Positions 34,147 through 58,631 of a DNA stretch of 64,000 bases are shown here, one piece after another. Below the pieces are notes generated by a model, which was given only the letters and a program-made list of their open reading frames with translations, searched no databases and was not told where the DNA came from. Positions within the stretch are counted from its first letter, which is position 1, and each line of letters opens with the position of its first letter. Origin of the DNA: a virus; IMG/VR virus record IMGVR_UViG_3300049060_000085, positions 10,771 to 74,770 of that record. One strand, 5' to 3'. A program made the translations under genes and the position numbers.

Positions 34147-34160
34147 CTCCTCGAACCGTT

Positions 34161-34172
34161 CTCATCCCGGAG
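34161..34172 (-). promoter_or_regulatory. late motif CTCCGGGATGAG, copy 1
   Basis: 14 nt upstream of ATG 34146. Confidence 0.7.
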
Positions 34173-34191
34173 AAAGGTTGCTCACAATCGA

Positions 34192-34572
34192 TCACAGGTT
34201 GCTGCGGTAGCGCTTGAGCACGCCATCAGCGCTTTTTCGGATGACGCGGAACGTCGCCTCTTTGTCGGTGATCCAAAAATGCTCGGCCACGCCCGCGAAC
34301 AGAGGCCAGCTGACGCTGGCGGATGCCGAGGGGTTGCCGCCCGTGCTTGGCAGTCCCGAGGCGAAATGGATGTAGCAATCCACATCGCAAACGAACGTCA
34401 CCCAGCACCCGCCGATAGGAATGCCGCTGGGGAGCGTGGTTGTCGCTCCCGTGGAGACCGATGTGACGCTGGTTGCATCGACTACCGCGAGAGGATCCGT
34501 CGCCCCGTCTTCGTACGTGGCAGTGGACGCATGCGGCGCCCTGCGCGCGATGGCTCCTGATTGTCCAAGCAT
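34192..34572 (-). CDS. putative virion protein
   Basis: GGAGGT SD; beta-rich. Confidence 0.7.
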   Translation of the reverse strand: MLGQSGAIARRAPHASTATYEDGATDPLAVVDATSVTSVSTGATTTLPSGIPIGGCWVTFVCDVDCYIHFASGLPSTGGNPSASASVSWPLFAGVAEHFWITDKEATFRVIRKSADGVLKRYRSNL

Positions 34573-34586
34573 AGCGCGACCTCCGT

Positions 34587-35009
34587 TCAGCTAGACCACG
34601 CGCAGATGGTTGCGGCCACTGACACGGTTCCGCCGCCGCTCGTGAACGTCCACAAGGGCCGCGCGTAGCGAGGGAAACTTGTGAAAGTCAGCACGGCCTC
34701 GGTTGTGCCGATGCCAAGGTTGTTGAATGTCAGCAGGCCTGTGGTGCTGCTGAATGTGATGCCGGATGCGAGCACGCTCGCGGTGCCGGAGTTCACGATG
34801 GGAAGCGCGATGGCTTGATCGGCCGCGCGGTTCTCGTCGTTGGTTCCACCCATTCCGAACGTGGCTTGCAGCGTCGCCGCGGTCACGGTGACGACCAGGC
34901 CCACCGACACGTGGCTGCAGTTGGCGATCTTGATCGTGCGGCCGATCTGCGTCCCGCTCGAACCGAGCAGCGCCACCTCTTGTACTAGGAAGTCTTTTCT
35001 GTCTGCCAT
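34587..35009 (-). CDS. beta-sandwich virion protein, tandem paralog 3
   Basis: shares NC..V, SGITF, F..F.R...FTSGGGT, W with 35023-35856. Confidence 0.8.
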   Translation of the reverse strand: MADRKDFLVQEVALLGSSGTQIGRTIKIANCSHVSVGLVVTVTAATLQATFGMGGTNDENRAADQAIALPIVNSGTASVLASGITFSSTTGLLTFNNLGIGTTEAVLTFTSFPRYARPLWTFTSGGGTVSVAATICAWSS

Positions 35010-35022
35010 GACACAACCTCTT

Positions 35023-35433
35023 TCAGGTGGACCAGCCAGAGATCGTGACCTTGTTGGAGATCGTGCCGCCGCCGCTTGTGAAGGTGAACACGGGGCGCAC
35101 GAAGCGCGTGAACGCGCTGTAGGCGACGGTGATTTCCGCGGTGGCCGCGGCGCCCGTCGCGAACGTCACAGCGTTCGAAGCGAACGTGATGCCCGAAGGC
35201 AACGCGGTGATCGCCGTGCCGCCGGTGAGCACGGGGAGCGCCACGGAAGTGTCGAGCGCGCGGTCGGCGTCGTTGGTGCCGGTGAGCGTGAGCGTTCCGA
35301 CCAAGTTGATCGCGGACGTGGTGATGACGATGGTCATCAACACCTTGTCGCAGTTGGTCACCTTGACCGCGCGACCGGTCTGCGTTGCGCCGACGCCCTC
35401 GAGGGCCACTTCAGATACCGAAAAATCAGCCAT
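35023..35433 (-). CDS. beta-sandwich virion protein, tandem paralog 2
   Basis: NCDK..LPVLTGG..PSGITFASNA..FTSGGGT..GWST. Confidence 0.8.
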   Translation of the reverse strand: MADFSVSEVALEGVGATQTGRAVKVTNCDKVLMTIVITTSAINLVGTLTLTGTNDADRALDTSVALPVLTGGTAITALPSGITFASNAVTFATGAAATAEITVAYSAFTRFVRPVFTFTSGGGTISNKVTISGWST

Positions 35434-35445
35434 AAATCCTCACTT

Positions 35446-35856
35446 TCAAACGGACCAAGCGCCGAGCGTGGCGCGAACATCGACAGTGCCACCGCCGCTC
35501 GTGTAGTCGTACACAGCGCGGACCCATGCGGGAAAACTCGAATAGGCGATCGTGACTTCGTACGTACCGATCGCCGGGTTGTTCAGCGTGATCGCGTTGC
35601 TTGCGAAGGTGATGCCGCTCGGGGCGGCGGTGATAAGCGCGCCGGTTGTGAGTACGGGCAGCGTGCTGGTCGGCTCGAGCGCTGTAACTGGGTCGCTCGT
35701 GCCGGTGAGCGCGATCGTAGCCTGAAGCGTGGCCGCTGTCACCGACAGCGTGATGGTCAGCGTGAGCTTGTCGCAGTTGCTGACCTGCACGGTGAGTCCG
35801 GACACGTCGGCGTCGGAGCCGGCGAGCACGGGTTGGCTCTTGAAAATGTCGGTCAT
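35446..35856 (-). CDS. beta-sandwich virion protein, tandem paralog 1
   Basis: NCDK..LPVLTTG..PSGITFASNA..YTSGGGT..GAWSV. Confidence 0.8.
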   Translation of the reverse strand: MTDIFKSQPVLAGSDADVSGLTVQVSNCDKLTLTITLSVTAATLQATIALTGTSDPVTALEPTSTLPVLTTGALITAAPSGITFASNAITLNNPAIGTYEVTIAYSSFPAWVRAVYDYTSGGGTVDVRATLGAWSV

Positions 35857-38279
35857 GCGTTACTCCGCTGAATCTGAGGTGCGTAGATCTGCTCTACGAA
35901 GATGGGATCTGTGCGCACGAGCCGCTCTGTCACAGCCGCGCGCGCGTCGTCGGTCCGAGCCTTGTTGTAGTCGTCCGCCCAAGGCATGAACGCGCTCGGG
36001 TTGGCCTTCATGGAAGCGGTCGTGTCGCGACCAAGTGTCATGCCGGCGGGCATGCCTTGCAGCGAAGACGTGGGCCCGTTCGGGTCTTTTTCGTCTGCAG
36101 CCGCTGGCGGCGGCGACGGCGGGCGGAACCCATCCCGGATGGCAGCGGCTTCGGCGCCGACGGGCATCCGCGCCTTTTCGCTGACGCGCTCCATCATGTC
36201 TGCGGTGTCGCCGCTCAGCCACTGAGCGTGGATGGAGTGCTTGCGCGGCTGGTACCAATGGTTGACCGCCATGCCGGCGCCCGCGCCCAGCGCGCCCAAC
36301 CCGCTTGCCCCAAGTGCGCCCGCGCCGAGGCTGTATGCGAGCCCGCCGCCGACGCTTCCGAGCGCAGAGCCCAGGGCACTGTTGCGCACGTCGAAGAATG
36401 GAGGGGCGTCGTGACGCGCGGAGCTCGCTTGGTCGCGCAGGAGGTTGAGCGTGCCCAAGTGCGCTTTCGAGTCCGCCCACTGCGTGGCCAGCTCCGGATC
36501 GGCGCGCTCCGCGCCAAGGTCCATCGCGTGATCGATGGCCGCGTAGCGCTCGCGCGCAAACGCGTCTTCAGGCTTCGCGAGCTCAGGCCTGATCGGCTGA
36601 CCTGCCTTGTTGAGCTCGTCGAGGTACGCGTTGAACGGCACGGGCGCAGGCCCGAGGTCTGCCATGGGCGCAGGCGCAGGCGCTTGGGCGCCGAGTCCGC
36701 GCATCCACGCGTCGGGATCGACAGGCGTTGCCGGTGACTGATTCGCAACCGGCAACGGCGGAGGCGGCAGAGCTTGTGCAGCCATTGGCGGTGGCGAAGC
36801 CTGTGCGGCGAGCGCGCCGATGGGATCGCCCACCACGGGCGCAGGAGATGCGCCCAGTGCTCCGAACGCGCTGGACTCGGGCGAAGCGCCAAGCAGCGAT
36901 CCAAACGCCGATGCCGGCGCCGGGGTGGGCGGCAGATTGGGTGCTGGGGCAGCGCTGGGCGGCGGCGTCATCGTTGGCAACGGAGGAGGCGCTGGCGGCA
37001 CCTGCTGCGGGCCGCCGGCGGCCGCCAGGGCCCCAACGGGATCGGGAGCCGGGGGTGCGGCTTGCACCGGTGACACGCGCTCGACTGGCTCCATGATGCG
37101 ACCGCCTGGGATGCCCATGCCGGAGTCCGCGTAGCGCTGCGCGATCGCGTCTGCGCCCGCCACATAGTCGGACGACAGTGGAGCGCCGTAAGCGGCCGCG
37201 GGGCTGCGCTCGCGAACATCCGCGCGAAACTTGTCGTGGATGTCCATCGGGTCGACGGTGGCGCCGCCCTGCGTCAGCGCTTCGACGGCCGCGTCCTTCG
37301 CGAGTCGCGCCTCGTCTCGAGCGCCTTGCACCGACGACGCCATTTCCGGCACCGTGTACGAGCCGCCGCGCTCGCCAGCGATGCGTCTGATTTCACTAAG
37401 GACGTTGCCGTATTTTTCCGGCTGCGCCGCGAGCTCGTCGATCGCCTTGTCGTCGTAGCCCGCGCTGCGCAAGAATTCATGATCGGCGTCTTGCGCGCGC
37501 AGCGCTCGGGCTTCAGGCGTGGCCTGACGCGCGGCGCTTCTTGCCGCCGCATTGCTTACCAGCGCGCCCGGCAACGCAAACGCGGCCGTGGCAGCAGCTC
37601 CGAGTTTGCCCGGCGCTTCTACCTGTCCTGTGTCGCCGTACTGACGCACAGCGTCCTCGCCGGCGCCGATCGCCATCTGTTCGCCGACTTCACCCAACAC
37701 GCGCCCCACCCCGGGCTTGATGAAGCGCGCAGCTGCAGCGATCTTGTTGACGGGACTCGCAAATGAGCCCACGAAATCGCCTGCGGCAAAGAGCGCCGGA
37801 TTGTCGCGCTCAGCGTCCATGCTCCACTGACGCACGGGTGCCGCGGCGTCGATCATCTGTCCAGCCGCGCGGTCGAGCCCAGCCGTGTACCCATGCACAC
37901 CGCCCGCGACCATGCTGCCGAGCGCGCGCGGTGCGCCGCCGTAGTCCGTGGGCTGCATGGTGGAGGCTTGCGCCGAAAACCCTGTGGGGTCCTCGCTGCC
38001 GCCGAGTAGACCGCGCAACCAGTCGCCGCCGCTCGGAGCTTCGGGCGTGGCTTCGCGCACCTCAGTCATGTTGAGCGAGCGACCAAGCGGCTTTTCGCTG
38101 CGAATCACCTCGGGCGTGCCCACGGTCATCTCAGCTTGCGGAGCTTCGCCCGCGTCGACCTCTTCGTCGTCGACACTCGTCGGAGACAAACCCTTCTTGT
38201 CCATGTCGTCCATGAACGCATCGAGCTTGTCTTCGGGGATGTTGAAGGTGCGCCCTTGTACTTTCCAGCGGGTACCCAT
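35853..38279 (-). CDS. internal virion/ejection protein (Pro-rich centre)
   Basis: 808 aa, Ala/Gly-rich helical, third large gene after nozzle. Confidence 0.7.
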   Translation of the reverse strand: MGTRWKVQGRTFNIPEDKLDAFMDDMDKKGLSPTSVDDEEVDAGEAPQAEMTVGTPEVIRSEKPLGRSLNMTEVREATPEAPSGGDWLRGLLGGSEDPTGFSAQASTMQPTDYGGAPRALGSMVAGGVHGYTAGLDRAAGQMIDAAAPVRQWSMDAERDNPALFAAGDFVGSFASPVNKIAAAARFIKPGVGRVLGEVGEQMAIGAGEDAVRQYGDTGQVEAPGKLGAAATAAFALPGALVSNAAARSAARQATPEARALRAQDADHEFLRSAGYDDKAIDELAAQPEKYGNVLSEIRRIAGERGGSYTVPEMASSVQGARDEARLAKDAAVEALTQGGATVDPMDIHDKFRADVRERSPAAAYGAPLSSDYVAGADAIAQRYADSGMGIPGGRIMEPVERVSPVQAAPPAPDPVGALAAAGGPQQVPPAPPPLPTMTPPPSAAPAPNLPPTPAPASAFGSLLGASPESSAFGALGASPAPVVGDPIGALAAQASPPPMAAQALPPPPLPVANQSPATPVDPDAWMRGLGAQAPAPAPMADLGPAPVPFNAYLDELNKAGQPIRPELAKPEDAFARERYAAIDHAMDLGAERADPELATQWADSKAHLGTLNLLRDQASSARHDAPPFFDVRNSALGSALGSVGGGLAYSLGAGALGASGLGALGAGAGMAVNHWYQPRKHSIHAQWLSGDTADMMERVSEKARMPVGAEAAAIRDGFRPPSPPPAAADEKDPNGPTSSLQGMPAGMTLGRDTTASMKANPSAFMPWADDYNKARTDDARAAVTERLVRTDPIFVEQIYAPQIQRSNA

Positions 38280-40178
38280 TCAGCGCTCCTCGTAGTCTTC
38301 CCAGTCGGTGAGGTCGACGGCTTCGATCGGCACGCTCGGCACCGGCTGAACACCGAGATTGTCGCCAGCGTCACCGCCCGAGCTCGTGCTGGGCGGTCTA
38401 TTGGACTGCTTCTTTGCGGCCTGCGGGTGAACATCGTCTAGGCTGCCCTCGGCTCCAACCGCTGCGGGCGCAGCGCTCGGCTGCAGATGTCCGAGCCAAC
38501 GTTTGGGATCTCGAATGTTGCCACCGGCCAACGACTGCGCGGCCAAGTCTGGCGCTGCCGCAGCGGCGTTGCCGAGCTGTGAAGTCAGCCGCGAACGAAG
38601 GATCTTCACCGAGTCTTTGATGTCTTGGAGCGTGGCCATCGGGCTCTGGGCGCTGGCGATGGCGGCGCGCATCTCTTCGCGCTCGTTGCCGCTCGCGCCC
38701 GTGTCGATGCGGTACACGCTTTCGGCAAGTCGGTTCAGGAGCTTGCGGTTGTAGTCGGCTTCGGCTTGGAACTTGTTGTACTCGTCATCACCGACGAGTC
38801 CCGCGATGCCGCGCAGCGCCTGCCCCAACGGGTACTTGTCTGCACCTTCTTTGAGCTGCTCGATACCGAGCCCCGGAGGCAGTTTTTTGGCTCGCTCCGC
38901 AGCCGCGATCACATCGTCGAGCTCGTCTACGAGCGACGCTGTGTCGATCTGCTTGGTGTGCTTGTTCCCGTACTCGGTGATCCAAGCTCGGTTTTTGTCT
39001 TCTTTGCGCGCTGTAGCAGCATCTGTACGGGCGCCTTCAGCGGCGGCGGTGCGACGCCTGGCCTCTTCCAAAGCCTCTCGCTGCAGCTTGTCGGCTGCGA
39101 TTTGATCGGGCGTCTGCGGCTTCGTTCCAAGCTGCTCGGCCTCGGCTTTGCGCCGCGCCGTTTCCGTGGTGTAGACGGTGTCGGCCTTGGTGTCTTTGGC
39201 CGCGTTTTCGGCTTCGATCGTGCCCGTCGCGCGACCCGCGGCCTTGACCTCTTCGGCGTGCCCGGCCTTTTGGACCATCGGCTCCGAGAGGTTGTAGTCG
39301 CGTCGGAACGACGGCATGGCTTGCGCCCAACCCTTGTCGTCGAGTCCCGCCGCGGCTTCGATCTTGGCGGGGTCCGCGCCGTTGAGCTTCATGAGCTCGA
39401 GCATCGCCGCGCGACTGCCTTTGCTGGCCTCCGCCGCAAGCGCATCCTTGGTGGCCTTGCTCGCAGCGGTTTGAGTCAGTCGCCCTTCACGGCCCTGCGC
39501 GGTCTGAATGCGCTGCATCGCCAGCATCTGGTTGACCGGATCGCTGTGCGCGCCGCCGGTCATCAGCTTGCGCCGGCCCTCCTCGAAACTGCGCTTGTCC
39601 GAATCGGCCTGTTGCAGGATGCCAGGGATCGAGCGGCCTTTGTTGAGGGCCACATCCACGAGGATCGCCCAGCCGTTGACGCCCGGAGCGCCGCGCTTGT
39701 CGTACTCTTCGAGCTGCCTGCGCTGCATCTCCTGGCCGCGCAGCATGAGCGCCTCGAACGGATCTTGTGCAGGCGGCGGTTCGGTCTTCGCCGTGCCCTG
39801 CCCAGGGTTTGTGAGCTCTTTCATCTCAGGGCTCGCACCTGCGCTGTCCACGCCCTTGGTGGGTGCCGCTCCGAGCGGCGGAGTCTCGGGCGCCGCGGGT
39901 GCCTCAGGCGACTCGGGCGCGAGCTCCATGGGCTCAGGCTCGGGCATCGGCTCGGGCAGGCTCATCGAAGCAAGCGCGGAGACGGCGCGATCGGCCGGCG
40001 GCTCGGGAACGGGCTCCATCTGGAACTCGGGATCGAGCGCGAGCCCGCCGGGCGACATGGCAGAGTCTTCGGGCGTGCTTTGCGCCGCGAGCGCCGCGAG
40101 CGCGGCGGTGCGCCGGCGCTCCTCTTCGTCGGGGTCGTAGCCGAGCAGATTGCTTTGAAGCTGGAAGTCCATGATCAC
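38280..40178 (-). CDS. internal virion/ejection protein
   Basis: 632 aa, charged coiled-coil. Confidence 0.7.
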   Translation of the reverse strand: MIMDFQLQSNLLGYDPDEEERRRTAALAALAAQSTPEDSAMSPGGLALDPEFQMEPVPEPPADRAVSALASMSLPEPMPEPEPMELAPESPEAPAAPETPPLGAAPTKGVDSAGASPEMKELTNPGQGTAKTEPPPAQDPFEALMLRGQEMQRRQLEEYDKRGAPGVNGWAILVDVALNKGRSIPGILQQADSDKRSFEEGRRKLMTGGAHSDPVNQMLAMQRIQTAQGREGRLTQTAASKATKDALAAEASKGSRAAMLELMKLNGADPAKIEAAAGLDDKGWAQAMPSFRRDYNLSEPMVQKAGHAEEVKAAGRATGTIEAENAAKDTKADTVYTTETARRKAEAEQLGTKPQTPDQIAADKLQREALEEARRRTAAAEGARTDAATARKEDKNRAWITEYGNKHTKQIDTASLVDELDDVIAAAERAKKLPPGLGIEQLKEGADKYPLGQALRGIAGLVGDDEYNKFQAEADYNRKLLNRLAESVYRIDTGASGNEREEMRAAIASAQSPMATLQDIKDSVKILRSRLTSQLGNAAAAAPDLAAQSLAGGNIRDPKRWLGHLQPSAAPAAVGAEGSLDDVHPQAAKKQSNRPPSTSSGGDAGDNLGVQPVPSVPIEAVDLTDWEDYEER

Positions 40179-42208: not shown

Positions 42209-42559
42209 TTATCCCACCACCAAAAGCCGGATGGTTGCGTAGCGCTCGCCCGCGGTGAGCCCGCCGATCTTCACGTTCACGGAGGCGCCGTCGAAGCCGA
42301 GTTGCGGAACCGCGTCCACCGACTGCCAGGAGCCGTCCGCTTTTTCGACGTAGGTCACCACGGCGCCGTGCGGTCTGCGCGACGACGCAAACACGAAGCC
42401 TTCGGTCTGATAGACCTGATCGGAAAACTCCACTTCGCGCAGCGCCGGCGCGGTTGAAATCACAGAGTCGAGGTTGCGGAGATTTTCGCCGACCTCACGC
42501 CCGTGGACTTCGTCCTCGGACCAAACGCGCTTGCGAATAGGCCGTTTGATGCTGCTCAT
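42209..42559 (-). CDS. small virion protein
   Basis: coupled to nozzle gene. Confidence 0.7.
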   Translation of the reverse strand: MSSIKRPIRKRVWSEDEVHGREVGENLRNLDSVISTAPALREVEFSDQVYQTEGFVFASSRRPHGAVVTYVEKADGSWQSVDAVPQLGFDGASVNVKIGGLTAGERYATIRLLVVG

Positions 42560-46594: not shown

Positions 46595-48012
46595 TAGTAG
46601 CCCCGTGCTTTCTTGCCGATCTCAGCGGCCTTGCGTTTGACTTCTGCGGCTGCCGCGGCGTCCTTGGGCACATAAACTCCGCTCGATTGAGAAGAGCTGC
46701 CGCTGGAGCTCATCGGCTTCGCGTTCTGCATTTGCCATTGCGGCGAACCGCGCGGCGCGGAGCTCGCGCTTGTGCTGGTCTTGGGTGCGGAGGCTGTGGT
46801 CGTCTTGGGCGCGGCTATCTTGGGCGCGGTGATCGTGCTCGTTTTGGGCGTATTGCCGCTGCCGGACGAGGGAACGCTCCAGCTGCCGAGTGCGCCCGAG
46901 CTGAAGCCTTTCGGCATGGAGAAGCCACCACCGCTCGACCCGCCGCCGAGCATGCTGCTTAGACCACCGAAAGAGCCGAGACCGCTGCTGCCGCCTCCGC
47001 CCATGCCGCTGAACAAGCTTCCGAGCGAGCCGAGGCCACCGAGCATTGAGCCCAGGTCGAAGCCTCCGAATCCGCCGCCGCTTGAGCCACCGCCGCTTCC
47101 CGAGCTCGCGCTGGGTTTGCCTTTGCCAGCGGCCTCCTTGGCCTTTTTGTCGGACTCTTCCTTGGCAATTTTCTCGATGTCGGCGAGCGAGTAGATGTTG
47201 CCATCCGTGTCGTACTGACCGCCGACCTCTTGTGCGCCGCGCGCGGCGGACTGCGTCACCCTCTTCTTGGAGTCCTCTTCGGAGGGATGCGCTTGCGCGT
47301 ACGCGAGTTTCTTGGCGTCTTGGAGCGCCTTCACGTGTTCGCCGGCCGAGGTGTCGCCGGCGTTCATTTGGTCTTCGAGTTCTTGGGTCGTGTAGCCGCC
47401 GGCCCAGTGGCGCTGCGGCTTGGGCTTTTCAGGCTCTGGAGGAGGAGGCGTCGAACCCTGCGATCCGCCGCCTCCCATCGAACCCATTCCGCCGCCGCCG
47501 AGCATGCTGCCAAGCATCGAACCGATGCCCGACATGCCACCCATGCCGCCGAGCCCGCCGCCCATCGACCCCATGCCGCCGCCGAGCATGCTGCCCATGC
47601 TGCTGCCGCCGCTGGCGGCTGCGCGCGGTGTGTTTTGGCTGACGTACGAGCCTCCGCCCCAGAGCGGGATGGAGGAGGTGTCGACGCCCATGTTTTCGTA
47701 GTTGGAGCGGACCCAGTCCGGCATGCCCGAGGCCCACGGCGTGCCGAGGCCGGCGCCGGTGGTCTGCGCGGTCGAGTTGACCGAGGGCATGTAGCTGGCC
47801 CCGAACTGCAGCATGTTGGCTTTGGCTTTATCGCCAGCGCCGATCAGCGAGCTTCCGGGGAAGATGGCTTGGTAGTTGCCGCTGCGGAGGTCTTGGAGCT
47901 CGGAGGGTGTGTAGGTGGTTTGGGCAACAGGCTTCGTCGCGGCGACGTTTTTCTTCGCCATCGCGTTGATCGCCGCCACCGCGGCTGGATCCGTCATCCC
48001 GTAGCCAGCCAC
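46594..48012 (-). CDS. Gly/Ser/Met low-complexity protein B with shared C-terminal tag
   Basis: GGMGSM repeats; ends PRGSPQWQMQNAKPM..YVPKDAAAAAEVKRKAAEIGKKARGY. Confidence 0.8.
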   Translation of the reverse strand: MAGYGMTDPAAVAAINAMAKKNVAATKPVAQTTYTPSELQDLRSGNYQAIFPGSSLIGAGDKAKANMLQFGASYMPSVNSTAQTTGAGLGTPWASGMPDWVRSNYENMGVDTSSIPLWGGGSYVSQNTPRAAASGGSSMGSMLGGGMGSMGGGLGGMGGMSGIGSMLGSMLGGGGMGSMGGGGSQGSTPPPPEPEKPKPQRHWAGGYTTQELEDQMNAGDTSAGEHVKALQDAKKLAYAQAHPSEEDSKKRVTQSAARGAQEVGGQYDTDGNIYSLADIEKIAKEESDKKAKEAAGKGKPSASSGSGGGSSGGGFGGFDLGSMLGGLGSLGSLFSGMGGGGSSGLGSFGGLSSMLGGGSSGGGFSMPKGFSSGALGSWSVPSSGSGNTPKTSTITAPKIAAPKTTTASAPKTSTSASSAPRGSPQWQMQNAKPMSSSGSSSQSSGVYVPKDAAAAAEVKRKAAEIGKKARGY

Positions 48013-48014
48013 CT

Positions 48015-48620: not shown

Positions 48621-48692
48621 AAAGACCTCCGAAAATCCACTGGGGCCGCGCGAACGGAGCAGTCGTTCGCGCAACCCCAGAAGAGCGTTTGA

Positions 48693-50003: not shown

Positions 50004-50446
50004 AACACGAACTCCAAAACGTTAGGGTTGAGAGCCCTTTCGTTCGGGGTGCCGTGCGTCGTGCGTCTTGCCTGCGTGCCGCTTATGGCTGCGAGGTCCT
50101 ACTGGGGTTCGGCCGGTGGTTTTCCGTAGCCGAAGCACTTCGGTTGCCGCGCTGATATGTCCACAGAGGTGCAGTGACTACAGAGCAGGGTTCCTACACG
50201 AAGGTTGATTGTCAGGTCCGGATGATTGGCCGAGCGGCGTGCCTTGGGCGAGTTGAATAACCCTAAGGCACGACCGCTGGACGCCTACGCTCCGGGATGT
50301 GTTCGTAGGCCGCGCGCGGGTCCGGGGAAGTTGCTAGGTCCGAACTCAGGCGCACGTACGATATTCTCTGCGTGAGGAATTTGTCGCCGTCAAGCAAAAG
50401 TGACGCGACTTACCAACTCGCTTCAGAATAGCTGAAAGAGCTGGAT
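50004..50446 (-). ncRNA. 443-nt structured leader or ncRNA upstream of the capsid gene
   Basis: stems at 50283-50310, 50233-50278 (about 16 bp), 50108-50143 (alternative pairings), 50024-50038. Confidence 0.55.
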
Positions 50447-51802: not shown

Positions 51803-51916
51803 ACGATCCTGCTCTAGACTTTCAGCCCCCCGCTCCAGGGAGCGGTTGTGCTAAAAACTAAGACCTCGCGACGCTTGCAGGCGTCCGAGGTCACGACCCA
51901 CAGGAGAGCTATTCCC

Positions 51917-52441
51917 ATGGATGAACGTGTTATCGCCCGCTTTTGGGCGAAGGTCGACATCAGAGGACCCAACGAATGCTGGCCCTGGACAGGCAGCAAA
52001 GATCGCTACGGCTACGGTCAGTACGGTTCGAAGAAGTGCAAGTCTGGGCGATGGATTGCGAGTCGCTTCGCCTGGACGGTCACCAACGGTCCGATCCCAG
52101 ACGGAGTCGAAGTCCTGCATTCGTGCGACGATCCGCCGTGCTGCAACCCCGCGTGTCTGTTCCTCGGCACTCAGGCGGACAACATGCTCGACATGCATGC
52201 CAAGAGGCGCCATCGAGCAGGCCCCAGAAAACCGTACAAGCCACGCCGGGCCGCGGCGAGCCACGGATATCGTCGGGGCACCCAGCAGCCCTCCGCAAAA
52301 CTCGACGAGCGAGGCGTTGTCGAACTGAGACGCCTCCGAGCGGAAGGCTGGACCTGGAAGGCGCTTTCCGAGCGATTTGGAATCGCGCCGCGCACCGCTG
52401 AGATGGTTGGCAAAAGACTTCGTTGGAAGCATGTCGATTAA
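51917..52441 (+). CDS. HNH (HNH_3-type) homing endonuclease with C-terminal HTH
   Basis: RFWAKVD..CWPWTG..GYG..VLHSCDDPPCCNP..GTQADNMLD; opposite strand between portal and scaffold. Confidence 0.9.
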   Translation: MDERVIARFWAKVDIRGPNECWPWTGSKDRYGYGQYGSKKCKSGRWIASRFAWTVTNGPIPDGVEVLHSCDDPPCCNPACLFLGTQADNMLDMHAKRRHRAGPRKPYKPRRAAASHGYRRGTQQPSAKLDERGVVELRRLRAEGWTWKALSERFGIAPRTAEMVGKRLRWKHVD

Positions 52442-52448
52442 ATCAAAC

Positions 52449-54734
52449 TCACTGCATGGCGCCCGCCGGTGGCGAGCTTGGCTGAGGAAGCGGTGTGCCG
52501 TTGCCAGACGCGCCGGTAGGGCCTGCCACTTGCCCCGAGACGTCTCCGCTGTTCTGCATGGTGGCCTGGTCGCTCGGCGCCGCCTGCGCGCTTAGACCGC
52601 CGTCTGGCGGCTGCGCGCCGGGCATGCCGCCACCGCCCTGCGCTGGGTTGGCAGCGCCTGAGTTGGCGCCCTGCTGCTGCGGCTGCCCGAGACCTTGCAG
52701 CTGGCCCGTGGCCAGCATGAACTCGAAGGTCATGTTGCCGCGCGGCGCCATCGGATTCGGCACGATCGGCGGAGGCGGGGGGATTTGCTGGAACTGCGCG
52801 ACCAGCGGGTTGAGCTGCAAATACGCTTCCGTGTGCGCCTGCAGGTGCAACCGCACGCGCATGATCGCCTCCAGGTCGGGGACGTCCGCCGCCATCAACT
52901 GCTCCAGCATGGCGTTGTGGAGCGGCCAGTGCTTGAAGGGGTTGTCGCCGGGCATGACGGGCACGAGGCCTTCGCCGGTGACCAGGCGCTCGTTTTCCTT
53001 GCGGATGAGCATCTCGGCGCTGTTTTCGGTCTTGAGCCAGCGCGTGGTGTTGCCGGTGGTGACCATCTCGTAGGTCGCCGCGCGATCTTCATCGGGCATG
53101 TTGCGCAGCGCGGTGGCGATTTGCAGACGGCCTGCGGTCGACTGCATGAGCGGGCTGATTTGCTCGATGTCGACGCGCTGCACGCCGGACAAGTCTTCCT
53201 TGGTGAACTCGGCGACGTACGAGCGCTGCTCGATGCCGGCGATGTCCACCAAGAACGGCGTTTCGCCGTAGCGCGTGATGAGGTCTAGGATGATTTGCGC
53301 GCCGTCGATGCGGAACTTGCGCGCGGCGTCTTGGCGGAACGATTGGTAGCGAATCGCGATGCTGTCGAGCAGCGCGTTCATTTCTCCAGAGCGGACGTTG
53401 GGGTCCGGGTCGCCGCGGCTGGCCGCGTTCTGACCGGAAACCGTGTCCAGCATCTTGTGCAAATAGCTTTTGAGATCCGGAAGCGTCGCCGGTACAGCAG
53501 CAAGCTGCACTGCTTTCGGCATCTGGGCGTTGGGAGGGACGTAAAACGCAGTACCTTGAGCGAGCGCATCGAGGGTGACCTCAGTGCCCTTCTCTATCGC
53601 GATGCTTTGACGACCAAAGGTCGCGTAGTTTTGCATTTCATCGCTGTTGACCTGGTTCAACGCTTGCTGAATCGCGATGAGGTCCCACGCATCCGCATAC
53701 CCAAACGTCGACTCGATGAAGCGTCCCGACTGCATCACCGCGATGGGCAAGCCACGTTTGCGCGGACACGGGCCGTCCCAGAGAATCACGTCACCCGCCA
53801 TCATCACGTAGCGGCCCTCGGGCACCGCGGCGCAGCGACGGTGATAGAAGTGCTTGACGGTGAGCTGGTCCTTCGAGCTGTAGTAGAGCTCCTCGAGGCG
53901 AAAGAGCGTGCCGAAGTCGTACCGGTCGTAGTCGGTTTTGACCGCCAAAAGCTCGTCACGCTTCGCCGGGAAGTTGGCGATCAAGTTCCAGCGGTTATCC
54001 AGCTCGCGGACCATGCGCCACTGGTGCTCGCCGGCGACCCGCGGCTCTTGAACAAGCGCCCACGGGTACACCACGGTGACGATGGGCTCGCCCGACTTCT
54101 CGATCGAGAAATGCTGCGCCGTGGTGCCGTCCTCCAGCTGGATGTCACGCGGCACCTTCATGTCGTCGCCGCCGAGGAAGTCCCAGCGGTAGTGCGTTGC
54201 GCCGAGGCCAAAGACGCCGTCGCCCTCCGCGGCGTCCATGTCGAGCGGCGCGCTGTAGCGCTTGTATAGCGAGTTGATGATCTTGTCGGTGAGCACGCTC
54301 TTCGCAAACGAGCGGTGGTCGCTGTTGCTCACAAGCGCCTTGAACGCTGCAGGCTCACCCAGCGCCAAAGACGTCTGATGTCGGATGTACGGGCGAATCA
54401 GGTTCAGGTGAAAGCGCAGAAGCTCCAGCTCGTTGCCACTGAATCCGATCGTCTGCGTCGCGAAGTCGCGCAGGTCGTCCGGCGTCAGGCCGTGGTGGGC
54501 GGCGTAGGCCACGACCCACATCGCAAGCAGGCCGCGGTTACGCGCGCTCTCGAAGAAGGCCTCTTCTTTGGCTTTGATCTCCGAGATGAAGTCCGGTCCC
54601 GACTTGCGCGCCCAGTAAATCTGGGACGGGTCGATGACCGGCTCTTCTTCCGGGTCGATAGGCCGAAGCGGGTCGCTGAGATCGGAGGCAGCGCCGAGCT
54701 GATCGAATGGAACTACGTTTTCTTGACCCAACAC
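52449..54734 (-). CDS. portal protein
   Basis: 761 aa between TerL and scaffold; LNLIRPYIRHQ..GEPAAFK, QQALNQVNSDEM, Q/P/G-rich C-terminal barrel. Confidence 0.85.
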   Translation of the reverse strand: MLGQENVVPFDQLGAASDLSDPLRPIDPEEEPVIDPSQIYWARKSGPDFISEIKAKEEAFFESARNRGLLAMWVVAYAAHHGLTPDDLRDFATQTIGFSGNELELLRFHLNLIRPYIRHQTSLALGEPAAFKALVSNSDHRSFAKSVLTDKIINSLYKRYSAPLDMDAAEGDGVFGLGATHYRWDFLGGDDMKVPRDIQLEDGTTAQHFSIEKSGEPIVTVVYPWALVQEPRVAGEHQWRMVRELDNRWNLIANFPAKRDELLAVKTDYDRYDFGTLFRLEELYYSSKDQLTVKHFYHRRCAAVPEGRYVMMAGDVILWDGPCPRKRGLPIAVMQSGRFIESTFGYADAWDLIAIQQALNQVNSDEMQNYATFGRQSIAIEKGTEVTLDALAQGTAFYVPPNAQMPKAVQLAAVPATLPDLKSYLHKMLDTVSGQNAASRGDPDPNVRSGEMNALLDSIAIRYQSFRQDAARKFRIDGAQIILDLITRYGETPFLVDIAGIEQRSYVAEFTKEDLSGVQRVDIEQISPLMQSTAGRLQIATALRNMPDEDRAATYEMVTTGNTTRWLKTENSAEMLIRKENERLVTGEGLVPVMPGDNPFKHWPLHNAMLEQLMAADVPDLEAIMRVRLHLQAHTEAYLQLNPLVAQFQQIPPPPPIVPNPMAPRGNMTFEFMLATGQLQGLGQPQQQGANSGAANPAQGGGGMPGAQPPDGGLSAQAAPSDQATMQNSGDVSGQVAGPTGASGNGTPLPQPSSPPAGAMQ

Positions 54735-54745
54735 ACGAAACTGCC

Positions 54746-54757
54746 CTCATCCCGGAG
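54746..54757 (-). promoter_or_regulatory. late motif CTCCGGGATGAG, copy 2
   Basis: 11 nt upstream of portal GTG. Confidence 0.7.
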
Positions 54758-54767
54758 CGCAGTGACT

Positions 54768-55079
54768 TCAAACAAATGCTTCGAGCTCGTCCAAACACCA
54801 GACCGAGTCTTTGGTCTTCATGTGCGCGAGCACGCGTTCCGCGTCGAGCTTCGCGGCCCACGGGTACTTGACGGTGTCGCGGCACGGATAGCAACGCAGG
54901 ACGTACGAAGCCTGGTGAGGTTCCTGCTCCCAGCCGACCGCGAGCATTCTCTGCTGACTTTCGGCAGTTCGCAGTTTGTGCCAGTCGTAGCTTTCCTGCG
55001 CGCAAAACGCGCAAGTCGGCCGGATGGTCTTCATGCGCTCGATCAGCGCCGCGGCGTCTTTGAGCGTGGGCTCTTCCAT
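54768..55079 (-). CDS. zinc-ribbon protein
   Basis: CAFC..CYPC; TGATG coupling. Confidence 0.65.
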   Translation of the reverse strand: MEEPTLKDAAALIERMKTIRPTCAFCAQESYDWHKLRTAESQQRMLAVGWEQEPHQASYVLRCYPCRDTVKYPWAAKLDAERVLAHMKTKDSVWCLDELEAFV

Positions 55080-55678
55080 CAGCAGCTCTGCAGCATGATG
55101 TACTTGGGGAGCTCGCCCTGCTTCTTGCTCGGCGCATCCGGTTGGATGACGGCCCAAGGCGTCGCGAGCGCGCCGATGGCGTTCAGAAAGCTCGAGCGGT
55201 TGATCTCACTGGACCAGCCGTTTTGGCCTTCGTTCCAGTGGTCACGCGCGCGCACGGGGCCGAGGATGTGTACGTCTTGGGCGAGCTCTTCGACCGGCGT
55301 GTGCACGGTGATGCGGGCGCCGTCGCGGTCCTCGCGGAAGGTTTGCGCTTCCTTTAGGCGTTTGCGGCCGTAGCTCTTGCGCACGGCGACGTAGACCACG
55401 GTGCTCTTGTTGAGCGCGTCCACGTTGAGCCGATCGCACAGGCAGTCGGTGAGGATCTCTTCGGAGAGCTCGGGATAGAGCTTGCGAAGCAAGACCGCTG
55501 CGGCCTCGATCTCTTCATGCGCGGGCGCGAGAAACCGCGTCAAATACGGCGATTCCATGTGCGGCACGCGATGCGTGACGAAGCCGGCGTCCTTGAGGTC
55601 TTGCCGGAGCGCGGGGTCTGCGGGCGGTTGTTGGGTGGCTTGGTGTTTGTCTTTGGGGTTTGTCTGAACTTCGGGCAC
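55079..55678 (-). CDS. hypothetical protein
   Basis: 199 aa. Confidence 0.75.
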   Translation of the reverse strand: MPEVQTNPKDKHQATQQPPADPALRQDLKDAGFVTHRVPHMESPYLTRFLAPAHEEIEAAAVLLRKLYPELSEEILTDCLCDRLNVDALNKSTVVYVAVRKSYGRKRLKEAQTFREDRDGARITVHTPVEELAQDVHILGPVRARDHWNEGQNGWSSEINRSSFLNAIGALATPWAVIQPDAPSKKQGELPKYIMLQSC

Positions 55679-55689
55679 GGACTCGTCTG

Positions 55690-55702
55690 CTCTATCCCGG
55701 AG
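55690..55702 (-). promoter_or_regulatory. late motif variant CTCCGGGATAGAG, copy 3
   Basis: 11 nt upstream of GTG 55678, 10 nt after the tRNA-Asn CCA. Confidence 0.6.
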
Positions 55703-55712
55703 AAGACGTTTT

Positions 55713-55788
55713 TGGCTCCAAGGGCAGGGTTCGAACCTGCATAGTCCCGGTTAACAGCCGGGCGCACGACCATTTGTACTACCTTGGA
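55713..55788 (-). tRNA. tRNA-Asn(GUU) with encoded CCA
   Basis: acceptor TCCAAGG/CCTTGGA-G-CCA; anticodon arm CCCGG-CT-GTT-AA-CCGGG; T-arm GCAGG-TTCGAAC-CCTGC. Confidence 0.93.
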
Positions 55789-55797
55789 ACATGGCGC

Positions 55798-56049
55798 TCA
55801 GTCGCCGATCTCGGCCGCGATTTGCGCTGAGGTCAGCTCATCCTCGCAAGCGATGCCCTGATTCGCCGTCATGACCGCTTGGCGCACCAAGCGGATCGCG
55901 TACGTCTGATCAGCGCTCGCGGTGGTATTGCTCACGATGGTTTCGGCAAGCTTTTTGGCCGCCTCCCGGATGGCCACATAGCGCTTTTGCTGACCGGGGC
56001 GCGGCGAGTGATAGACGAACCAGTTGTCGAGGTCTGCTTGGGTGATCAT
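55798..56049 (-). CDS. Acb2/Tad1-like helical-hairpin nucleotide-sponge candidate
   Basis: DLDNWFVYHSP..QQKRYVAIREAAKKLAETI..SADQTYAIRLVRQAVMTANQGIA. Confidence 0.65.
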   Translation of the reverse strand: MITQADLDNWFVYHSPRPGQQKRYVAIREAAKKLAETIVSNTTASADQTYAIRLVRQAVMTANQGIACEDELTSAQIAAEIGD

Positions 56050-56402
56050 GTCTGCTCTTTCAAAATGTCGTCGATGTTCGGCTCGGCGAAACGTTCGGCG
56101 AGCGCGGGGGGTTTGGCTTTGGACTTGGCCTTCGCTTCGGGCACGACGCGCACGAAGTACGTGCCGAGCTCCTCGGGAGGCATAGCGTCGTAGACGGCCG
56201 GAGTGCCCGGGTAAGTGATGACGGCGTCGCCGTAGCGCACGTACTTGTGCTGCTTGTTCGTGCCAGCGAGGATGGAGCCCACAACCGTTTCGTCTTCGTA
56301 GAAGCTGTCCGGAGCCACCGCGACATGCCCGTGCGCGGGGTCGTAGAAGTCGACCAGCACGTGCAGCGGCGGCGCTTGTTTTTCTTCGTACACAAACGGC
56401 AT
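56046..56402 (-). CDS. hypothetical protein
   Basis: coupled on both sides. Confidence 0.7.
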   Translation of the reverse strand: MPFVYEEKQAPPLHVLVDFYDPAHGHVAVAPDSFYEDETVVGSILAGTNKQHKYVRYGDAVITYPGTPAVYDAMPPEELGTYFVRVVPEAKAKSKAKPPALAERFAEPNIDDILKEQT

Positions 56403-56755
56403 CAGAATTTCTTCTGGGACATGTTGCCCATGTGCATGGTGATCTTGGTGGCTTCGCTCATGCAGCGTTCCACCGCGTCTTTGACGTCGGTGCCCATGCG
56501 CTGAAGGATGCGGCCTTGCTTGGTGAGCTCGTCGCGAATCTCGTCGCGGTCGCGCAGCGTTTCACCGCGCAGCACCGATAGCTCCTCCCGTAAGCGCGCG
56601 ATCGCCGCGAGTGCGGTCTCCGCGGTCTCGCGCGCGTCGTGGTCGGCTGCGCGCTCGGCGCTGGGCTTGTCCCGGAAGAGGTTGAGCACGAGAGCGATAA
56701 CGAAGCCGCTCACGGCGGCCTTCCAAAGATGGATGAACAGGTCGACAATCGTCAT
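56402..56755 (-). CDS. N-terminal TM + coiled-coil protein
   Basis: LFIHLWKAAVSGFVIALVLNLF then heptads. Confidence 0.7.
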   Translation of the reverse strand: MTIVDLFIHLWKAAVSGFVIALVLNLFRDKPSAERAADHDARETAETALAAIARLREELSVLRGETLRDRDEIRDELTKQGRILQRMGTDVKDAVERCMSEATKITMHMGNMSQKKF

Positions 56756-56758
56756 GGG

Positions 56759-58597
56759 CTATCTGCGTCCTCGGCCACCGTCGTAGAGCTTGAGTCGGCC
56801 GCGCTGGTGGATGCCGTGCGCCGCGTTCTGGGCGTGCTCGAGGGCGAGCTCGTGCGGAGCCTTGGGCATCCAAGGCAGGCGTTCGATCACGGTGACACCG
56901 GCGGGGAACTCACGGAGAATGTGCTCGGGGGGGTGGGGCCGAGAATTCGTATACTGCTCGACCTTACGCACCATGTAAACGAGCGCCGAGGCCAAGTCGA
57001 AGTGTCCGTAGACCTCGTGTTCAGCTAGTTTTCCGCGTTTGTCGCGCTTTGCCGAATGCACGTGGTCGATGACCGCACCCGCGTGGGGGGAGAACCACAT
57101 CCGGCCCTCGCCGAGCCAGTTACGGACGTTGCGAATCATGGTGGTGAGCTCTTCCTTGGTGGTCGCCAAGAACTCGAGCCCGTAGTGCTCGTCGATGTCG
57201 CGGATGAGCTGCTTGTCGACGTCGCTCACGCGCGCGGCGGGGTTCAGGTGAAAGCCTTGTCGGTCGTAGTACGGGGTGATCGCACCGGGGATGGGTTTGA
57301 TGATCCAATCGCCTGGGCGTCGCTCGCTTGTGGGGCGATCGACGAGCGGGGTCGTCGCCATGCGATGGAGCTCGGGTGCTAGCTTTTCGTACTTGTCGCC
57401 GTGAAGAAGGTCGCGCCATCCAGCGTGGACGCCGTCGTGCTGCGCAGGGATTCGGCGCATACGAACGTCCGGCCACCGACCCCAAAGCACGAACTCGCGT
57501 GCTGCGCAGACAGCGCTGACTTCCATGGACCCTGCATTCGATTTGGCCCATGAATCCAGGATAAGTAGTCGGTCAGCGTCAAAGTCATACTCGCCCCAGA
57601 TAAGCCCGAATAAGTGCACTTGGCCAGGGTCTGCGGCGACAAACCCATACGCGTGCTTCGGCCTTTCGAAGTGGCGTACGTGGAGCTCGCGGGTGAACTC
57701 GGGGAAGGCTTTGAGGGCTGGGTCGCCGGCAATGATATTGAAGTATTCGCGCTCGCAGTTCGGGTTGCCGCGCCCGCCTGCCATGCCGATCCAGTAGTCT
57801 TTTTCGCGCCGGGTGAGCTTCGAGTTGTCCTCGATCGTCACCTCTGCGAATGCGCCGCGCCGTTTGGCGTCGGGCATCACGATGCGCTCCCAGTCCGTGT
57901 CTTGGTCCTCGGGCGCCGAGCTCTCCACCATCATGCGCGCCCAGGGGCGCTGCTGGTATTGGTGGATGAGGACGTTTCGGACCGCGTAGTCCAGATTGCT
58001 GATGAACGCTGCTTCGGAGACGAAGTCGAAGTCGTTCTCCTGGCCGCGCAGGGCGTCTTTGTTGACGTCGATGCCCGCGAGCGCGAGCCGTGCGCCGCCG
58101 GTCGGACCATCTTCGGGCCAGTACAAGCCGGCGGGGAGGATACCGCGCTTGCCGTGGTAGGTCGGCACCGCGTAGTCGGGCGCGGTGCTAAAGGCCTGCG
58201 TGACGACCGAGCCTGCGATCTCGTCGATGTTGCGCTGGAAGGCGCTCGTGAGGCGCATCTTGGCGGGTCGGCCGTATTTGCGGAAATACCAGACCGCAAT
58301 CTCGTACGCGACCCACAGGTACAGCGTGGTTTTGCCGAAGCGCTTGCCGCCCGCGATGACGAAAATCAGCGGGATGGAGCCGGTCTCGTGGACCTCCTCG
58401 AGCTGGTCGATCTCACGCCAGGCGTGGATCTGATTTCTCAGCGCGAGCTGCCCCGAATGCATGAGGCCGGAGAGGTCTCCGGTCTCCCATGAGAGGGCGA
58501 TGAGCTCCTCGTCTGTAAGCGCGTCGAGGTCAGCCTCGGTGAGCTGCTTTTCGAAGACGAGGGCGTCGGGGTCGTTTTCTAGGTCGTCAGGGTACAA
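56759..58597 (-). CDS. terL: terminase large subunit
   Basis: AGGKRFGKT Walker A, LRGQEND.DFVSEAAF Walker B region, ESSAP coupling motif, VAADPG nuclease Asp, GHFDLASALVY. Confidence 0.9.
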   Translation of the reverse strand: MYPDDLENDPDALVFEKQLTEADLDALTDEELIALSWETGDLSGLMHSGQLALRNQIHAWREIDQLEEVHETGSIPLIFVIAGGKRFGKTTLYLWVAYEIAVWYFRKYGRPAKMRLTSAFQRNIDEIAGSVVTQAFSTAPDYAVPTYHGKRGILPAGLYWPEDGPTGGARLALAGIDVNKDALRGQENDFDFVSEAAFISNLDYAVRNVLIHQYQQRPWARMMVESSAPEDQDTDWERIVMPDAKRRGAFAEVTIEDNSKLTRREKDYWIGMAGGRGNPNCEREYFNIIAGDPALKAFPEFTRELHVRHFERPKHAYGFVAADPGQVHLFGLIWGEYDFDADRLLILDSWAKSNAGSMEVSAVCAAREFVLWGRWPDVRMRRIPAQHDGVHAGWRDLLHGDKYEKLAPELHRMATTPLVDRPTSERRPGDWIIKPIPGAITPYYDRQGFHLNPAARVSDVDKQLIRDIDEHYGLEFLATTKEELTTMIRNVRNWLGEGRMWFSPHAGAVIDHVHSAKRDKRGKLAEHEVYGHFDLASALVYMVRKVEQYTNSRPHPPEHILREFPAGVTVIERLPWMPKAPHELALEHAQNAAHGIHQRGRLKLYDGGRGRR

Positions 58598-58609
58598 CGC
58601 ATGGCTTGA

Positions 58610-58621
58610 CTCATCCCGGAG
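58610..58621 (-). promoter_or_regulatory. late motif CTCCGGGATGAG, copy 4
   Basis: 12 nt upstream of TerL TTG. Confidence 0.7.
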
Positions 58622-58631
58622 CTAGCCACGT

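Follow-up and report, generated by a model that had tools for sequence, protein, structure and literature searches.

A 64,000-nucleotide stretch of a phage genome (bases 10771-74770 of the 75,003-bp IMG/VR virus record IMGVR_UViG_3300049060_000085, 62% G+C; the whole stretch is referred to as the window and the genome as G000) carries a 12-nucleotide (nt) motif, CTCCGGGATGAG, shortly before the start codons of several late genes, and a single inverted copy in the leader of the major capsid gene. Judged from sequence comparison, a small RNA hairpin is built around the 12-mer, with the core CUC[CGGGAU]GAG and a variable extended stem, and the inverted copy would expose the complement of that hairpin's loop at the tip of a second hairpin. 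The best explanation, and one that we consider reasonably probable, is RNA-RNA loop pairing of the capsid leader with the target hairpins.

Three exact copies of the motif lie on the minus strand, and a 13-nt variant, CTCCGGGATAGAG (55690-55702), is located 10 nt 3' of a tRNA-Asn gene (Table 1). Sequence inspection bears out all of the motif coordinates in the initial annotation of the window, as well as its statement that the copies end 11-14 nt before start codons: the measured distances are 12 nt for TerL, the terminase large subunit gene (TTG, 58597), 11 nt for a 199-amino-acid (aa) open reading frame (ORF) beginning with GTG, 11 nt for the portal gene (GTG, 54734) and 14 nt for a Gp80-like gene (ATG, 34146). 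The inverted copy, CTCCGGGATG(TG), is on the plus strand at 50290-50301. As had also been claimed, it fills the 14-nt loop of a GCCUACG/CGUAGGC hairpin (50283-50310, minus strand), in which the RNA exposes the complement CAUCCCGGAG.

These repeats exceed what chance would supply. With the 75-kb genome modelled as a first-order Markov chain, the 10-mer is expected 0.158 times over both strands and observed four times (P=2e-5), while the 12-mer is expected 0.01 times and occurs three times (P=1.6e-7); the earlier rough estimate of about 0.25 chance copies led to the same excess. No further exact copies are present in the whole genome, which has four forward copies and one inverted copy, and the relatives described below show the same pattern. 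Overlooked copies in coding sequence, which would have spoken against a regulatory motif, do not appear: no coding copies fit the model, and all copies are intergenic and confined to the late region.

The forward motif as a hairpin

Among G000 and four relatives fetched whole (G001-G004), the flanks of the invariant CUC...GAG differ from site to site and are nevertheless mutually complementary, as in UUUCUC...GAGAAA, CACAAgCUC...GAGaUUGUG and GGCCcaUCUC...GAGAaGGCC. The CUC/GAG pairs close the CGGGAU hexaloop in 20 of the 21 copies folded from these five genomes. When folding is constrained to the core, real flanks give -9.2 kcal/mol versus -4.9 kcal/mol for flanks swapped between sites (P=3e-10), and the flank-shuffle z score is negative for every copy (21/21, mean -2.2). 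In an ungapped alignment of 25 copies, 72.4% of the cells of a 10-pair helix are paired versus 58.3% in shuffles, a level reached by none of 500, and sliding the helix partners lowers the paired fraction to 36-48%; double-sided changes number 44 where 19.8 are expected, and the covariation score is 0.35 versus 0.14. All three closing pairs are intact in each of the 25 copies. The middle pair is UA in 20, UG in three, AU in one and CG in one, and is never unpaired; the form found in the relative L171 is CAC[CGGGAU]GUG.

The motif is also conserved as a unit. Between G000 and G001, which are about 78% identical in nucleotide sequence, it stands as an island of identity in diverged intergenic DNA, and in the group of phages that share the core CCGGGAUG (G000-G004 and L171) it is constant save for paired variants of the closing stem, while the flanks have diverged. 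Searched with a covariance model of the forward hairpin, the window yields exactly four sites, each of which precedes a late gene. Hairpin 1, before TerL, folds at -13.5 kcal/mol with the hexaloop (flank-shuffle z=-2.9) and has orthologous copies in G001-G004. Hairpin 2, with its 7-nt loop, is matched even though it was absent from the training set, and its G001 orthologue is the exact 12-mer. The portal hairpin has the extended stem CCGC/GCGG in G001, a compensatory change. A further hairpin, before the scaffold-like gene, lacks the loop motif and, from what its relatives carry, is probably what is left, in degenerate form, of a fifth target that this phage seems to have lost or replaced: the corresponding site bears the motif or an allele of it in G002, G003, L171, L049, L173-L176 and L050, and a one-mismatch copy in G001.

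The inverted copy is of a different kind, scoring 8 bits under the forward model. It departs from CTC...GAG in every genome of the CCGGGAUG group (GTG, CGC, GAA or GAC variants), and only CCGGGAUG is kept. Because its inner 3-bp stem is broken, the complement would stay open in a large loop. A stem that is kept in forward copies and broken in the inverted one appears to be a better fit to a target and its partner than to two sites of one protein.

Several simpler readings of the copies were tried and rejected. They are not intrinsic terminators, as no U tract follows them; the sequence after them is A-rich or mixed, and a terminator scan does not list them. The ATG within the motif does not serve as a start codon or open a short upstream ORF, being out of frame here and differing in frame between G000 and G001. 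Nor is the motif a Shine-Dalgarno (SD) sequence: the spacing from GGGA to the start is 14-18 nt, which is too long, and one allele is not G-rich. A one-mismatch copy at 47993-48004 is a chance match, since the gene that follows likely starts in frame at its ATG and G001 has no such copy. The lack of a well-spaced SD before most of the target genes, to which the initial annotation drew attention, is not distinctive, as an SD core (GGAG, GAGG or AGGA, 4-12 nt before the start) precedes 36 of 126 crude gene calls in G000 (29%; a rough figure in which starts are those of the longest ORF). SD use thus looks low in this phage generally. At the portal gene, the GTG start in most relatives (L046-L049, L171, L173, L175, L177, L178) is the end of a conserved GAGGUG or AUGAG(A)GGUG, a perfect complement of the 16S anti-SD that overlaps the start codon without a spacer; the portal starts of G000 (54734) and G001 are without this element.

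Covariation among relatives and alternative readings

Sixteen relatives with capsid identities of 65-98%, all soil and rhizosphere phages, were drawn from IMG/VR, JGI metagenomes and Logan assemblies. All 16 have the same layout. Sense copies lie between genes, each 10-17 nt ahead of the start codon of TerL, portal, a scaffold-like or fiber gene or one of their neighbours, and the capsid leader contains a single antisense copy. The two checks proposed when the motif was first noted, conservation in relatives and joint change of loop and targets, both came out in its favour: the motif is kept in 16/16, and loop and targets change together in about ten alleles (Table 2). In most alleles a G-rich target is matched by a C-rich leader sequence (UCCC, UUCC, CCCC), whereas the UUGGCA/UGCCAA allele of L177 is unlike any ribosome-binding site.

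Table 2. Target and leader alleles of the motif, by phage.
Phages	Target	Leader	Remark
G000-G004, L045, L171, L172	CCGGGAUG	CAUCCCGG	
L049	GGGGAUG	CAUCCCC	
L173	ACGGGAACG	CGUUCCCGU	
L174	CCACAGGAAGG	CCUUCCUGUGG	
L175	CGGGGUGACGAG	CUCGUCACCCCG	
L050	CACGGGUGACGAG	complement of CACGGGUGACGAG	
L176	CACGGGGUAUCG	CGAUACCCCGUG	
L177	CACUUGGCAGUG	CACUGCCAAGUG	CAC[UUGGCA]GUG in the target, CAC[UGCCAA]GUG in the leader
L178	CUCGCGGGAUAG	CUAUCCCGCGAG	
L052	AGAAGUGCGG	CCGCACUUC	weaker case; complementary sequence at two leader positions

Leaders match the regions upstream of portal or scaffold over a longest complementary run of 10.75 nt on average within a genome and of 7.56 nt in non-cognate combinations. 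Complementarity reaches 10-12 nt in the window, and cognate matches of 11-13 nt with p<=0.01 are found in seven lineages. Leader-target energies from RNAduplex or cofold are matched by shuffled G+C-rich controls, which are as low.

It might be supposed that the repeats are products of chance or non-functional, for example the remnants of a duplicated regulatory cassette. At this length and G+C content, complementarity of 8-9 nt does arise by chance, the longest match in the null having a mean of about 7.4 nt. However, the 12-mer is present three times where 0.01 copies are expected, the significant cognate matches in the seven lineages always fall at the same relative positions, and the CCGGGAUG group holds its motif constant while the flanks diverge. 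Such an origin is very improbable.

A second alternative is a DNA site. The initial annotation had proposed a late promoter, read by a host alternative sigma factor or a phage activator, with the inverted copy driving an antisense RNA; more broadly, the motif could be bound by a phage transcription factor, sigma-like factor or RNA polymerase, the inverted copy being the same site reversed, and site and protein specificity would then co-evolve, as T7-like promoters do with their polymerases. Several traits are much what a DNA site would predict: the motif is asymmetric and oriented with the genes, it occurs only between genes of the late region, its copies, with the inverted one among them, change jointly from lineage to lineage, and a TTGTGA-like sequence lies upstream of some of them. 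GGGAU resembles the GGG(T/A)AT -10 element of SigB/SigF promoters (GTTT-N12-17-GGGTAT), and some copies are T/G-rich about 13 nt upstream. The upstream element is not conserved, however, and the motif is embedded in a covarying RNA stem that a DNA site does not need. Since the hairpin arms covary, the 5' arm would have to be transcribed, whereas the promoter reading starts transcription downstream of the motif. The TGA(A/G) reported 8-9 nt upstream is indeed there, but at TerL and portal, two of the three copies, it is the stop codon of the upstream ORF, and the TKTGAR element is missing at half of the orthologous G001 sites and at most sites of G002-G004. Of the motif, the inverted copy retains no more than the 8-nt core, and its inner stem is broken in every case, as happens in no forward copy. 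The capsid gene, presumably the most expressed late gene, has no forward copy and a TTGAC-type site instead. Phages with 65-98% capsid identity would need to have evolved a new DNA-binding specificity about ten times over, and nothing in alleles such as UUGGCA or GGGGUGACGAG recalls SigB/SigF promoters. In keeping with the earlier remark that no phage sigma factor was seen, no Sigma70_r2 domain is found at E<=1 in the five genomes searched, although a very divergent factor could escape such a search, and no RNA polymerase domain occurs among the Pfam matches of 67 early-region proteins. The late promoter in its original form is not upheld, and we give a DNA site of any kind a small chance of being correct.

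The third alternative takes the hairpins as RNA sites for a protein or a ribosome: operators for a CsrA/RsmE-type host regulator, a phage translational repressor or an endoribonuclease, or else stabilisers or standby sites, with the leader complement secondary. RsmE and CsrA sites present GGA in a hairpin loop with a C-G closing pair, and the CGGGAU hexaloop has GGA at positions 3-5 and such a closing pair. Most alleles are G-rich and look like ribosome-binding sites. One copy directly follows a tRNA, and RNA processing at that point would place it at a 5' end. Set against this, the GGA of a CsrA/RsmE site would be conserved wherever the element is, yet the L177 loop, UUGGCA, lacks it and still retains both hairpin and complementary leader loop. 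The distance from GGGA to the start (14-18 nt) is too long for an SD sequence, and a protein operator does not account for a conserved, covarying antisense copy in 16/16 relatives. No CsrA domain is encoded in the five genomes searched. Hairpins of this sort, acting through a protein, are an unlikely explanation of the element.

The capsid leader and a pairing model

The leader of the capsid gene is non-coding and divides into a variable 5' half, which contains the anti-motif hairpin, and a highly conserved 3' part of about 200 nt. Folding of the whole leader keeps the anti-motif hairpin in both the minimum free energy and the centroid structure. A long hairpin presents the anti-motif at its tip in all lineages, with stems that differ in sequence (GCCUACG/CGUAGGC, GCCGCG/CGCGGC and CAUCG/CGAUG, for example, with stems of 10-14 bp in L173-L177). 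It lies 182-322 nt before the capsid ATG in the relatives and 437 nt before it in L176, which has an extra small ORF. This 67-aa ORF (L176:3666-4169) is inserted between the leader and the capsid gene, and the usual capsid ribosome-binding site (GUUUUGGAGU) now stands ahead of it.

Two further properties of the leader concern the capsid gene itself. Across the five genomes, the 3' segment (50004-50210, minus strand) is more conserved than the adjoining coding DNA, and in consensus and single-sequence folds the capsid ribosome-binding site (GGAG, about 50014-50017) is paired in a long conserved helix with about 50030-50055; the modelled helix may gate capsid translation. An Rfam search gives nothing in the leader at E<=1, and across the window only tRNAs pass.

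The capsid gene may also be transcribed on its own. TTGAC occurs 50-95 nt upstream of the anti-motif in 13 of the 16 relatives, and in several of them a -10-like hexamer such as CATATT follows at a spacing of 16-18 nt; in the window the candidate site has an unusually long spacer and is of low confidence, and a strict sigma-70 consensus scan of the leader finds no promoter. Together with the terminator-like hairpin directly after the capsid stop codon, the upstream TTGAC-type site suggests that the capsid gene is its own transcription unit. The capsid message would in that case be a separate transcript, probably an abundant one, with the anti-motif hairpin close to its 5' end.

Loop-loop contact between perfect complements is the classical recognition step of antisense RNAs, and here a 6-nt target loop would meet a perfect complement that can be extended to 10-12 bp. 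In the pairing model, the target hairpins would be transcribed within late messages, 10-17 nt upstream of head, packaging and fiber gene starts; in this phage the target set would be TerL, the 199-aa ORF, portal and the Gp80-like gene, with the scaffold-like gene added in relatives. The tip of the capsid-leader hairpin would expose the exact complement AUCCCG, extended to CAUCCCGGAG, and the leader, presumably abundant, would form loop-loop ("kissing") complexes with the target hairpins, either in trans or within one long transcript. The suggestion in the initial annotation that the leader loop base-pairs with these 5' untranslated regions thus gains support from the covariation in the 16 related phages, and its proposal that pairing in trans sets the stoichiometry of packaging to capsid proteins may be right as well: the target proteins would be required in much smaller numbers than the capsid protein, as suits a mechanism that controls protein ratios. 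Pairing would couple the expression of low-copy head proteins to the capsid message. The effect is probably translational tuning and would most simply come about by hindering initiation or triggering cleavage. Our guess is that pairing lowers translation or stability, because the hairpins sit at the 5' edge of the ribosome-binding region covered by the 30S subunit.

A number of observations weigh against the pairing model. Covariation of sense and inverted copies is also expected from a co-evolving protein that binds double-stranded DNA, and the antisense strand of the motif folds slightly more stably than the sense strand (means of -10.5 and -9.3 kcal/mol). The targets of L175, L050 and L176 are not clearly hairpins, and the L052 allele is a weak case. 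In L171, L049 and L173 the complementarity is 8-9 nt and alone not significant (p=0.1-0.4), although their recurrence at one relative position in two or three targets lends them weight. The concerted change of three to seven targets and one anti-motif is left unexplained by pairing. No RNA runs containing the phage are among the runs found, all of which are soil or rhizosphere metagenome DNA. Finally, the choice of repression over activation is itself a guess; pairing may instead activate, or may have a purely intramolecular role in a long late transcript.

If pairing of this kind is real, it has a wider interest. That tailed phages make capsid, portal, scaffold, terminase and fiber proteins in widely differing amounts from co-transcribed genes is mostly ascribed to ribosome-site strength and terminators. 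An RNA-RNA circuit dedicated to this task would add a new level to the control of late genes, one in which the capsid message signals its own abundance to the remaining head genes, and the natural alleles would be orthogonal loop-target pairs that could serve as orthogonal regulators.

Table 1. Positions of the genes, hairpins and other features of the late region, in window coordinates; bit scores and their E values are from the covariance model of the forward hairpin.
Feature	Position	Strand	Details
Target hairpin 1, before TerL	58600..58630	-	core CUC[CGGGAU]GAG (exact CTCCGGGATGAG) 58610-58621; loop 58613-58618; stem extended by GUGGCUAG/UCAAGCCAU; 28.3 bits, E=2e-6
TerL, target gene	56759..58597	-	phrog_2, E=4e-5; 90% identical orthologue in G001
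tRNA-Asn(GTT)	55713..55788	-	immediately 5' of target hairpin 2
Target hairpin 2, before the 199-aa ORF	55684..55708	-	7-nt loop, CUC[CGGGAUA]GAG 55690-55702; 22 bits, E=2e-4
ORF of 199 aa, target gene	55079-55678	-	no family match
Target hairpin 3, before portal	54737..54769	-	exact motif 54746-54757; extended stem CUGC/GCAG; 30.7 bits
Portal, target gene	52449..54734	-	phrog_156, E=3e-15
Candidate degenerate fifth target, before the scaffold-like gene (ATG 51802)	51821..51854	-	hairpin CCGCUCC/GGAGCGG without loop motif; 8.7 bits
Scaffold-like gene, 451 aa	50447-51802	-	
Capsid leader, non-coding, 443 nt	50004..50446	-	alignments; consensus and single folds
Candidate promoter-like site	50361..50393	-	TTGACG 50388-50393; GAATAT 50361-50366; 21-nt spacer
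Anti-motif hairpin	50283..50310	-	stem GCCUACG/CGUAGGC; 14-nt loop AACACAUCCCGGAG; CAUCCCGGAG at 50290-50299
Major capsid protein gene, 436 aa	48693..50003	-	phrog_14242, major head protein; its leader carries the anti-motif
Terminator-like hairpin, 17 bp	48640..48680	-	directly after the capsid stop codon
Target hairpin 4, before the Gp80-like gene	34154..34179	-	exact motif 34161-34172; extended stem AACCuUU/AAcGGUU; 34.8 bits
Gp80-like gene, fiber or head-associated protein; target gene	33715..34146	-	PF23140 Gp80, E=6e-28; phrog_240

The late genes run along the minus strand in the order TerL, portal, scaffold-like and major capsid, followed by tail and fiber genes that include the Gp80-like gene. 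Homologues of the capsid protein carry PF17236 (SU10_MCP) and relatives carry an SU10 adaptor domain, which together point to a podovirus of the SU10/GP4 type on the evidence of protein families. No near relative is found among deposited phages: megablast of 11 kb against deposited phage records gives no match, and tblastn with the capsid protein against deposited phage genomes gives a single remote one. When viral contigs were scanned for a pattern taken from around the capsid ribosome-binding site, 117 matches came up, none of them encoding a capsid relative.

Two features of the genome stand apart from the motif. The 199-aa ORF after tRNA-Asn stops at 55079, and an ORF in another frame (54768-55157, minus strand) runs on to a TGA before the portal hairpin; the DNA of this region (54768-55678) is conserved with G001 up to that TGA, and relatives such as L171 have a single 191-aa gene there that ends 46 nt before portal. 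The split may be a frameshift, an assembly error or two overlapping genes. Outside the window, a 592-aa protein (G000:C1:5680-7458, locus L042) has Ro60 vWA and TROVE domains and is a phage-encoded RNA-binding protein of the Ro60/Rsr-like type.

Comparison with known antisense and start-associated elements

In mechanism, the pairing model recalls the c4 RNA of P1 and P7, which acts on the icd-ant message, and the CI RNA of the satellite phage P4, which pairs with seqA and seqC. Like the element proposed here, these are structured RNAs encoded on the strand or in the operon of their targets, with short loops complementary to sites just upstream of ribosome-binding regions, and their specificity differs between related phages through matched changes of loop and target; in the present phages an exposed loop is likewise complementary to sites upstream of starts, in about ten covarying alleles. 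Here, however, the regulating RNA would be the capsid message's own leader and not an immunity RNA released by processing, and its targets would be several late structural genes, with a balance of output, not immunity, as the likely purpose. The Rfam c4 and c4-2 covariance models have no match in the window or the leader.

A resemblance also exists to RNAIII and the Rsa small RNAs of Staphylococcus aureus, in which C-rich (UCCC) loops pair with G-rich translation-initiation sequences, often themselves in hairpin loops, and the loop-loop complexes block ribosomes and can recruit RNase III. Most of the anti-motif alleles here are C-rich. The staphylococcal RNAs, however, are host regulators that act on true SD sequences, whereas the pairing site here is upstream of the SD position and the UGCCAA allele is not C-rich; from this L177 allele it follows that pairing of C-rich with G-rich sequence is not essential.

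Among described features the closest is the start-associated sequence (SAS) of Cluster K mycobacteriophages. This asymmetric motif of 13 bp precedes 11-19 start codons at a distance of 3-9 bp, and in subcluster K1 one SAS copy per phage is in reverse orientation (Pope et al. 2011, PMC3203893). Its function was still called ill-defined or unverified in 2024-2025 (PMC11373665, PMC12699233). Both elements are short and asymmetric, both stand a little way ahead of the start codons of some genes only, and nearly all copies share one orientation; in the present genome the four forward copies are accompanied by a single inverted one. The SAS consensus, GGGATAGGAGCCC, partly resembles the window variant GGGAUAGAG. 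However, CTCCGGGATGAG and CTCCGGGATAGAG do not match that consensus within two mismatches, only GGGAT(A)GAG being common to both, and the spacing differs, SAS being 3-9 nt from the start with the SD core AGGAG and the present motif 10-17 nt from it without AGGAG. SAS precede early, non-structural genes, whereas the motif here is a hairpin before late head, packaging and fiber genes, and the phages, presumed hosts and sequences are unrelated.

Parts of four Cluster K genomes were compared with the window: Anaya, Adephagia, TM4 (20000-52797) and Pixie (last 9 kb). In Anaya (JF704106, near 59870, L179) and Adephagia (JF704105, near 58682, L180), the reverse SAS is in the tip loop of a hairpin, GCGCGG[CCUCCUAUCC]CCGCGC, on the gene-sense strand, with a compensatory difference between the two phages (C-G to A-U). 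In Adephagia it falls in the gap between genes 92 and 93, where RNA-seq has placed the late transcription start (PMC11373665). These two phages thus share with the present ones many sense copies at starts and one antisense loop in a late-transcript leader. As far as we have found, the placement of the K1 reverse SAS in the tip loop of a long hairpin has no earlier description; its position in a loop suggests, on sequence grounds, an antisense role, and an anti-SAS loop at the late start could shut off early genes. The comparison has a side that weighs against pairing as a general rule. No inverted SAS is present in TM4 20000-52797 or in the last 9 kb of Pixie, though both have SAS, while the inverted copy is found in 16/16 relatives here; start-associated motifs can evidently work without an antisense partner, at least in the parts searched.

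What is new in the present phages is that the forward motif is a hairpin, that the layout is common to 16 relatives and that the alleles, about ten of them, covary. As far as sequence comparison goes, the element would be a new variant of antisense RNA control. A bolder proposal, which we put forward only tentatively, is that the capsid leader also acts in trans as a riboregulator, its one exposed loop contacting matching hairpins before packaging, portal, scaffold and fiber genes and thereby setting the proportions of the virion proteins, and that this logic is perhaps widespread in tailed phages, K1 SAS included. If the pairing logic is true, it could explain the K1 SAS, the role of which has been open since 2011.

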